Shown here piece after piece: positions 37,662 to 39,335 of a stretch of 64,000 nucleotides of DNA. The position numbers were made by a program, and so were the translations under genes. This DNA comes from Eledone cirrhosa (Eukaryota): assembly GCA_964016885.1 (NCBI GenBank), contig OZ024743.1:155248001-155312000 (forward strand). Reading direction: 5' to 3'. The notes beneath the pieces were generated by a model. The model made no database searches. It was not told the DNA's origin and saw only the letters and a program-made list of their open reading frames with translations. How positions within the stretch are numbered: position 1 is the first letter of the stretch; the number at the start of each line of letters is the position of its first letter.

Positions 37662-39335
37662 AAACGGAAAAATGAATCGAAATTTCATTTCTCTTAGTAC
37701 GGCTGTTACTTAAATATAAGTATGTATACGCACATACATATATGTATACAGACGTACAGTAGTATATATACATACATGCACACATATATATATGTACTTA
37801 TGGATTCACCGAATATTTATTATAATGCTCGGTGTGTTTGTAAACAAACATCCCGAATTAAGCCGTACAGTGTCTAGCAACCATCGTTGCTCTTTGGTTC
37901 AGCACGGACAAAGGAACGTTGTACTAGTTTCAAGCTTATTAGCTATCGTCAGCAACGTATACCTTCCAGCAAGATTTGTTTACAAAAACACCGAGCATTA
38001 TAATAAATGTTCCGTTATCCATACGTACATATATGTCTGCATGTATGTATACATATATACATACTATTGTACGTCTGTATACATATATGTATGTACGTAT
38101 ACATACTTATATTTAAGTAATAGCAGTACTAAGAGTGAGAAATGAAATTTGGTTTCATGTTTTCCGTTTATCGTTTTCGGTGCGCCCGGCCAATTAACTC
38201 ACACGATATGCCAATTAGGCTGCTCAGCCGTTAATATGCATAGTGAAAGTATATACTTTCAGACGCTCAATTATCTGGCAGGAAGGTATACGTTGCTGAC
38301 GATAGCTAATAAGCTTGAAACTAGTACAGCGTTCCGTTGTCAGAGTTGAACAAAAGAACAACGATGGTTGCTAGACACTGTACCGTTTAATTCGGGATGT
38401 TTATTTACAAACACACAAAGTATTATAATAGATGTTCGATCAATACATACGTACATATATATATGTGTGCATGTATGTATATATATATATAGATGTGTGT
38501 ATGCATGTATGTATATATATATATATATATATATATATATATATATATATATATATATATATATATATATATATATATATACATATACATATATATATAT
38601 ATGTATATATATATATACATACATATATATATATATATATATTTATATATATTTATATGTATATATATATATATTTATATATATACATATACATATATAT
38701 ATATATATATATATATATATATATGTATGTATATATATATATATATATATATATATATATATATATATATATATATATATATATAAATATATGTATGTAT
38801 ACGTACATACATATATGTATACAGATGTACAGTGATATGTATATATATATATACATACATGCACACACATATATATATATATATATACATACATACATGC
38901 ACATATATATATGTGTACGTATGTATTGATCGAACATTTATTATAATGCTTTGTGTGTTTGTAAATAAACATCCCGAATTAAACGGTACAGTGTCTAGCA
39001 ACCATCGTTGCTCTTTTGTTCAACACTGACAAAGGAACGCTGTACTAGTTTATATCCTCCTGCCAGATTATTGAGCGTCTGAAAGTATATACTTGCCATA
39101 TGCATATTAACGGCTGAGCAGCCCAATTTGCATATCGTGTGAGTTAATCGGCCGGGCGCACCGAAAACGATAAATGGAAAAAATGAAACGAAATTTCATT
39201 TCTCACTCTTAGTACTGCTATTACTTAAATATAAGTATGTATACGTACATACATATATGTATACAGACGTACAGTAGTATGTATATATATATACATACAT
39301 GCAGACATATATGTACGTATGGATTAAGGGAACAT
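37662..39335. mobile_element. Cluster of a non-coding HHR element with an about 425-nt permuted unit (three arms)
   Basis: 37662-37972 (-), 37975-38510 (+), 38790-39335 (-); the same sequence recurs on both sides of the HHR. Confidence 0.8.
38291..38331 (+). ncRNA. Minimal hammerhead ribozyme (copy on - at 37916-37958)
   Basis: cgttg-CTGACGA-t-agc..gct-t-GAAA-ctag-TA-caRcg. Confidence 0.85.

Follow-up and report, generated by a model that had tools for sequence, protein, structure and literature searches.

Within a 64-kb stretch of the Eledone cirrhosa genome (the window; GCA_964016885.1, contig OZ024743.1, 155,248,001-155,312,000, in whose own positions all coordinates are given), a 38-nt sequence at 37975 recurs at 38400 with 84% identity and a spacing of 425. 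A preliminary description had interpreted this locus as a circularly permuted hammerhead unit of retrozyme type. Two questions arise from it: whether the repeat is a local duplication or one copy of a mobile family, and, if it is mobile, which enzyme copies it and from which template.

The locus and its genome-wide family

As shown in Table 1, the locus was read from the window sequence as three arms, a left minus arm, a plus arm and a right minus arm. The left arm and its minus-strand hammerhead were absent from the preliminary description. Between this arm and the plus arm, 23 of 208 sites differed. At its 3' end, the plus arm has decayed inside the TA/CA tract and enters (TA)n at approximately 38500. 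The right arm had been correctly described as exceeding one unit and lacking its hammerhead core. It had also been offered as further evidence for the unit, and as independent evidence it had to be given up: the right arm and the plus arm have private mutations in common, and a 23-nt variant occurs at only two places in the genome, one in each of these arms. Since these variants are confined in this way, the right minus arm probably arose later, through local inverted copying of the plus arm.

Table 1. Features of the locus and of related or neighbouring elements (window positions unless a locus is named; PLE, Penelope-like element; RT, reverse transcriptase)
Feature	Position	Strand	Remarks
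Left arm of head-to-head twin	37662..37975	-	5'-truncated at 37975; 3' end at site 2 (tail-bearing), abutting (TA)n
Intact type I hammerhead, left arm	37916..37958	-	C3 at 37952; predicted cut between 37922 and 37921
Plus arm, ~1.3 units	37975..38545	+	monomer 37975-38399 and start of second round; tail-less
TA/CA-rich tract	38020..38110	+	predicted long hairpin; preferred 3' end site 1 at hairpin base (~38109)
Optional ~60-nt tail segment	38110..38170	+	terminal hairpin 38139-38159; preferred 3' end site 2 at 38170/38171
Octamer-like motif position	38208..38215	+	mutated in plus arm; intact at 39126-39133, minus arm
Canonical type I hammerhead, plus arm	38274..38343	+	CUGACGA starts at 38296; predicted cut after GUA, after 38326
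(TA)n tract, insertion target	38500..38790	.	from window sequence
Right arm, ~1.3 units (~550 nt)	38790..39335	-	3' end at site 1; 28-nt core deletion at 39051/39052
Hydra-type PLE	39445-43590; L169		RT and C-terminal endonuclease, ~1.3 kb 3' UTR
Unrelated 522-nt non-coding tandem unit	26700-27840 (tandem 27.1-27.8 kb); 34871-35660		1,824 first-look candidates
Sister lineage	L078:2385-2930; L083-L102; G000:C1:5738326-5752750		helix II closed by canonical G-C; triplet GUU or GUC

At the sequence level, the 425-nt repeat was confirmed as one copy of a genome-wide non-coding family. The opposite case, a local duplication absent elsewhere, failed, in that the 35-nt hammerhead core had 9,245 exact matches in the genome (4,844 + 4,401) and its reversed control had 0. 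When the 3.0-Gb genome was searched at the DNA level, 3,317 first-look candidates came up; among the 40 that were scored, full-length matches besides the window itself were 92-93% identical. For the comparisons below, 73 of 80 loci and the window were analysed, seven having been dropped as repeats of the same site. Loci L002-L030 were chosen by similarity, L031-L060 were the first exact cores on C1, and L061-L080 were picked by hand, seven of them as arrays.

The landmarks stood in circularly permuted order across copies, and multimers were found genome-wide, in agreement with the retrozyme-type unit described previously. Long copies enter the previous round and not an ORF, and 37 of 141 tracked passages continued beyond site 2 (defined below) into the next round. 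Tandem arrays reached five hammerheads at 420-440 nt spacing, and 17 of the 18 natural inter-hammerhead intervals measured 419-453 nt. By hand count, at least 22 of the 100 first-listed exact cores lay in nine same-strand arrays with 420-453 nt spacing, a lower bound, and 78 of the 100 had no same-strand neighbour one unit away.

The unit was non-coding, as proposed, with a longest ATG frame in the natural trimer of 68 aa on the plus strand and 54 aa on the minus strand; the ORF for RT and GIY-YIG endonuclease that defines an autonomous PLE was not present in it. The GC content was 0.36-0.38 in 17 of 18 monomers. By the sequence-level definition, the unit is a non-LTR retrozyme. Like the metazoan non-LTR retrozymes of coral, mussel and axolotl in the available text of Cervera & de la Pena 2020 (PMC7229834), it is built of non-coding monomers in tandem, each bearing a single type I hammerhead, and it has a GC content below 50% and a highly self-paired predicted circle. 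Its weak palindromic helix III resembles that of the axolotl hammerhead HHR_Amex1, its basal U.U in helix II that of HHR_Amex2, and its monomer of 420-450 nt lies at the top of the 150-450 bp range given in the same text. However, most copies comprise 1-2 units and are arranged as head-to-head twins at (TA)n, their 3' ends fixed at two positions, and this anatomy is not described in that available text.

A sister family of 464-470 nt (466), found in the flanks of loci, matched the unit in 302 of 494 columns (61%), and its best copies were 99% identical; its predicted fold is similar, and its copies end at the same two sites. Matches to a degenerate hammerhead pattern numbered 5,929; of the first 100 listed, 99 were read as these two lineages and one as unrelated. 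The suggestion of a varied retrozyme-like population was borne out by the 466-nt sister lineage and the unrelated 522-nt tandem unit; of the three units counted within 13 kb in the preliminary description, two families were checked.

The hammerhead and the predicted fold

The preliminary description had placed one minimal hammerhead between the 38-nt repeats; the repeat and a single type I hammerhead were found there, but the word "minimal" did not hold. In PLEs, the minimal hammerhead is defined by the lack of helix III, a long helix II (7-8 bp) and a short helix I (Cervera & de la Pena 2014), and the available text of PMC4209133 sets it apart from the canonical metazoan hammerhead, which works as a dimer. 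In the unit, helix I has 6 bp, a bulge and an extension; helix II has three pairs above a basal U.U and is closed by the 6-nt loop 2; and helix III has 1-2 bp inside a 6-nt palindrome (38320-38325 in the plus arm). By the published definition, as far as the text of PMC4209133 gives it, the ribozyme is thus canonical type I.

Pairing was evaluated in an alignment of 64 hammerheads, made up of the two from the window and 62 of the 75 distinct variants seen at the loci, the other 13 being truncated or gapped. In this alignment, 94.8% of cells paired and one helix I position showed five pair types, a score inflated by kinship. Within the family, one helix I pair altered on both sides, which is fewer than in shuffles (1 vs 2.2) and was counted against the retrozyme reading preferred here. 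Across the two lineages, 61% identical, helices I and II changed on both sides, loop 2 and the palindrome remained constant, and the cleavage triplet was GUA, GUU or GUC. This covariation is stronger evidence for a ribozyme than the within-family pair score.

RNAalifold and the single-strand and unconstrained folds did not return the active core, which was mis-paired, and this result was also weighed against the preferred reading. The dimeric active fold was modelled at 6.1 kcal/mol below two monomeric active folds and 7.5 above the free minimum. Rfam gave 0 matches at the gathering threshold in the whole window, and an E-value search of 37600-39600 gave no hammerhead among the 150 of 169 matches listed, all of which were below threshold and mostly microRNA models on TA-rich hairpins.

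Beyond the hammerhead, circular monomers were predicted to fold better than shuffles (z -5.6 to -8.9; 4/4 monomers, 40 shuffles each), with helix I closing the predicted circle fold across the cleavage junction. The internal TA/CA-rich tract noted previously was present, and it is better regarded as a predicted long conserved hairpin than as a passive microsatellite. Where the region was matched, an octamer-like motif was intact in 71 of 87 family copies and in 46 of 54 sister-family copies. Newt satellite 2, likewise a tandem hammerhead repeat, has an octamer in its promoter, and by this analogy we would guess that the motif is a candidate internal promoter element. For newt satellite 2, an internal snRNA-type promoter is cited in the available text of PMC2220036.

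Insertion anatomy and Penelope-like elements

Copies of the unit were inserted at (TA)n, and their 3' ends abutted (TA)n at either of two fixed positions within the unit, separated by about 60 nt: site 1 at approximately +214 and site 2 at approximately +273 from the cleavage site. The 127 arm 3' ends fell at these two sites in 108 cases (56 + 52) and elsewhere in 19, and a motif-based count agreed. The 5' ends were scattered, and inspection of the tabulated ends by eye gave no clear pile-up at the cleavage site. Several 5' truncations were seen at +395 to +401, the 5' edge of the core (L049, L050, L056, L061, L063, L073, L079), a clustering that is probably in part an effect of core-based locus selection. 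Loose (TA)n ends behind 38171 were also present in contigs of runs X2 and X3; the runs compared with the unit were three, of unrecorded type and from one sample (maybe the source sample), and as contigs they are uninformative on expression and circles.

Thirty-eight head-to-head pairs were found, of which 29 were classifiable and nine were not. All 29 combined one arm ending at site 1 with one arm ending at site 2, and none had two alike (p 1.9e-9 against 50:50). A stricter check left 27/27; the pairs removed were a spurious one and that of the window itself, the latter because its plus end is decayed, though tail-less. The tail was carried by the left arm in 12 and by the right arm in 17 of the 29 pairs. 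The sister family followed the same rule in 10/10 pairs (17 of 20 loci), and so did its 31-unit array, which fails to separate rolling-circle copying from later expansion. In the 522-nt unit, two fixed ends lay about 120 nt apart, and the twin rule held at 4/4 distinct twin sites outside the window.

An inverted 5'-truncated copy with a tail on one end is the signature of PLEs (Arkhipova 2013, PMC3846280; Craig 2021, PMC8557442, as far as their available texts go). The copies of the unit showed all three traits, 5' truncation, inverted 5' copy and one-end tail. With the endonuclease-bearing (EN+) PLEs of these texts the unit has in common 5' truncation, partial tandems, the inverted 5' copy, the optional one-end tail and AT-rich or (TA)n targets; it differs from them in having no ORF and a tail of about 60 nt instead of 30-40. 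A target-site duplication is unreadable since the flanks are (TA)n. In vitro, according to the available text of Frangieh 2024 (PMC11167929), a PLE protein cleaves AT-rich DNA on both strands and extends each of them, and reverse transcription starts at two internal sites bounding the tail. The unit in vivo appears to use strictly one site per arm, whereas the start site in that in vitro work was the same between strands.

Since the insertions are back to back and one-tailed, PLE enzymes likely copy the unit. Judged from the sequence, the unit is very probably a non-coding hammerhead tandem repeat of ~430 nt at (TA)n, a non-LTR retrozyme copied by a PLE RT and endonuclease. The enzyme that moves animal retrozymes has so far been argued from co-occurrence and homology. 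In the available text of Li, Clavereau & Pollet 2026 (bioRxiv 10.64898/2026.07.22.740005), retrozymes are non-autonomous PLE derivatives using PLE machinery, on the evidence of co-occurrence and pseudo-LTR homology, and the words "tail" and "head-to-head" do not appear in that text. Our unit agrees with that account in its co-occurrence with PLEs in the genome and in the PLE-machinery conclusion; it differs in that its evidence is the insertion anatomy, and no parental pseudo-LTR was found in one intact PLE family or in L001-L102. Compared with co-occurrence, the insertion fingerprint of PLEs, borne here by thousands of copies of a unit without coding capacity, is a more direct link between animal retrozymes and PLE machinery. 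The main texts of openly available papers yielded no description of the twin or tail anatomy in a retrozyme. The mechanistic insertion fingerprint of the unit is unusually clean. In addition, the one-arm-per-start-site rule is strict enough to constrain the still unexplained mechanism of PLE integration.

Further evidence on PLEs came from the window itself. Many 5'-truncated PLE ends lie in it, together with fragments of RT and endonuclease. Among nine window fragments, Pfam identified the RT in three, one of them above the cut-off, and it identified none of the endonuclease fragments. The ORF-bearing PLE copies in the window carry the same one-arm tail, with arms ending at 39445/43590 and 3713/7498. 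Elsewhere in the genome, an intact PLE bearing RWR, DKT and CxCX5C, motifs of the Hydra clade (as given in the available text of PMC8557442), occurs in 3,531-bp tandems with intact 717-aa frames (from the first Met). Its clade targets (TA)n. Hammerheads are reported as universal in this clade, and in the one unit examined the sense strand had no CUGANGA box. This was the one family returned by an endonuclease search with 57,470 first-look candidates, of which 150 were scored. Two results count against the preferred reading: this family and the unit have no sequence in common, their best match being 11 nt, and an nhmmer profile of 28 monomers found no ORF-linked distant relative in the window or in L001-L102.

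The junction at 39335 was considered as a chimera of unit RNA and a coding PLE. This was rejected because both pieces end at their own site 1, and it is also countered by the variants that each piece has in common with its neighbour across (TA)n. The right arm and the adjoining 75-nt PLE end (38790-39410) each resemble an inverted copy across the adjacent (TA)n tract, which suggests fold-back repair at (TA)n. Mirrored PLE ends of 50-75 nt flank (TA)n in many loci.

The template and other elements in the window

In the mechanism that we propose, multimeric loci would be transcribed, possibly from an internal promoter, and two hammerheads would pair via the palindromic helix III and excise monomers, which would probably be ligated into circles. 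The PLE protein would bind the hairpins around the two sites and cut both strands of the (TA)n tract, so that each of the two DNA ends may prime cDNA at a different site, site 1 for one end and site 2 for its partner. Both cDNAs would continue through the hammerhead junction and so exceed one unit, and their joining at the truncated 5' ends would yield the head-to-head twin. It may even be, though this is less probable than not, that a single circular RNA is primed twice by a dimer of the PLE RT-endonuclease, once per (TA)n strand and once per site. The two cDNAs would then chase each other round the same circle and be joined head to head.

Of 28 pairs, three were too short to compare; in 24 of the remaining 25, the twin arms differed less between themselves than from the other arms on average. 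Minority-subfamily variants were common to both arms of twins, and the window locus was the exception to this similarity. Together with the strict one-site-each rule, the similarity of twin arms is consistent with double priming on a single circle. The similarity could also be given by subfamilies of the same era (subfamily succession) or by arm-to-arm conversion. If true, a single circle primed twice would explain the PLE inverted repeat and the one-sided tail in one step.

A related reading, which we hold to be rather unlikely and yet the strongest of the alternatives, is that PLE enzymes do move the unit, but with linear multimeric read-through RNA as the template and never circles, and the hammerhead trims or rides along. 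The circle step is the sole difference between the two. In PMC11167929, to the extent of its available text, hammerhead cleavage was unnecessary for PLE insertion in vitro and uncleaved RNA was used, which favours a linear template and was counted against our preferred explanation. The scattered 5' ends without clear pile-up at the cleavage site point the same way. So does the heterogeneity of some arrays: neighbours in L063 differed at 22 sites, and the five-hammerhead array of L061 alternated two monomer variants (420/422 nt), its second and fourth monomers being identical. These two loci indicate that not all arrays came from one monomer circle. The alternation in L061 is the expectation for a dimer template or for duplication of a dimer. 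However, the two monomers of L047 were identical (0 substitutions) and at least nine substitutions away from all other loci, and the neighbours in L097 were near-identical. The closure of the predicted fold by helix I across the cleavage junction and the retention of the hammerhead with compensatory changes across lineages 61% identical also speak against linear transcripts. Furthermore, as 78 of the 100 listed cores stood without a same-strand neighbour at one unit's distance, linear copying would require all multi-unit insertions to be seeded by a few array loci.

The available text of Li et al. 2026 (10.64898/2026.07.22.740005) takes at least two consecutive intact hammerheads per locus as the mark of an active retrozyme. 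Such loci were present in the family (L047, L061, L004 and others), and at the window locus the two intact hammerheads lay on opposite strands. Eight of nine frog retrozyme dimers in that text did not cleave, and this was counted against the preferred reading. A non-coding 430-nt template with two mapped start sites, a 99%-identical younger sister family and intact PLE ORFs in the genome make the question of which enzyme moves animal retrozymes directly testable in vitro.

That the copies are pseudo-LTR remnants of a coding PLE, the 430-nt period being a partial tandem of its ends, is very improbable and largely refuted. It fits the 5'-truncated PLE ends with RT and endonuclease fragments that fill the window, and the twin-and-tail anatomy is that of PLEs. 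Nevertheless, the 37 of 141 passages loop past site 2 into the next round and not into an ORF, arrays have up to five hammerheads at 420-422 nt, there is no ORF above 68 aa, and the hammerhead is of the canonical retrozyme type and not the minimal form usual in pseudo-LTRs. A satellite or MITE-like repeat that spreads purely at the DNA level, duplicating and folding back at (TA)n without an RNA intermediate, is hardly credible. It would suit the right arm of the window, which resembles a local inverted duplicate, and unequal crossing-over could lengthen arrays. Against it stand the dispersal over thousands of sites, 3' ends that are fixed while the 5' ends scatter, the one-site-each rule and the selection acting on an RNA fold.

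Other hammerhead-like sequences were seen in the window. The 522-nt unit has a CUGACGA box, around which a full type I hammerhead could not be folded. A second PLE family (3713-7498 and 14355-15200) has a 684-aa open frame with a weak RT match, motifs resembling the minimal hammerhead at 3906, 7245 and 14542, and a one-sided tail of ~56 nt. Further hammerhead-like motifs with a long helix II were located at 1134, 36920, 50066, 50482 and 50534, and those at 50482 and 50534 form a head-to-head palindrome.
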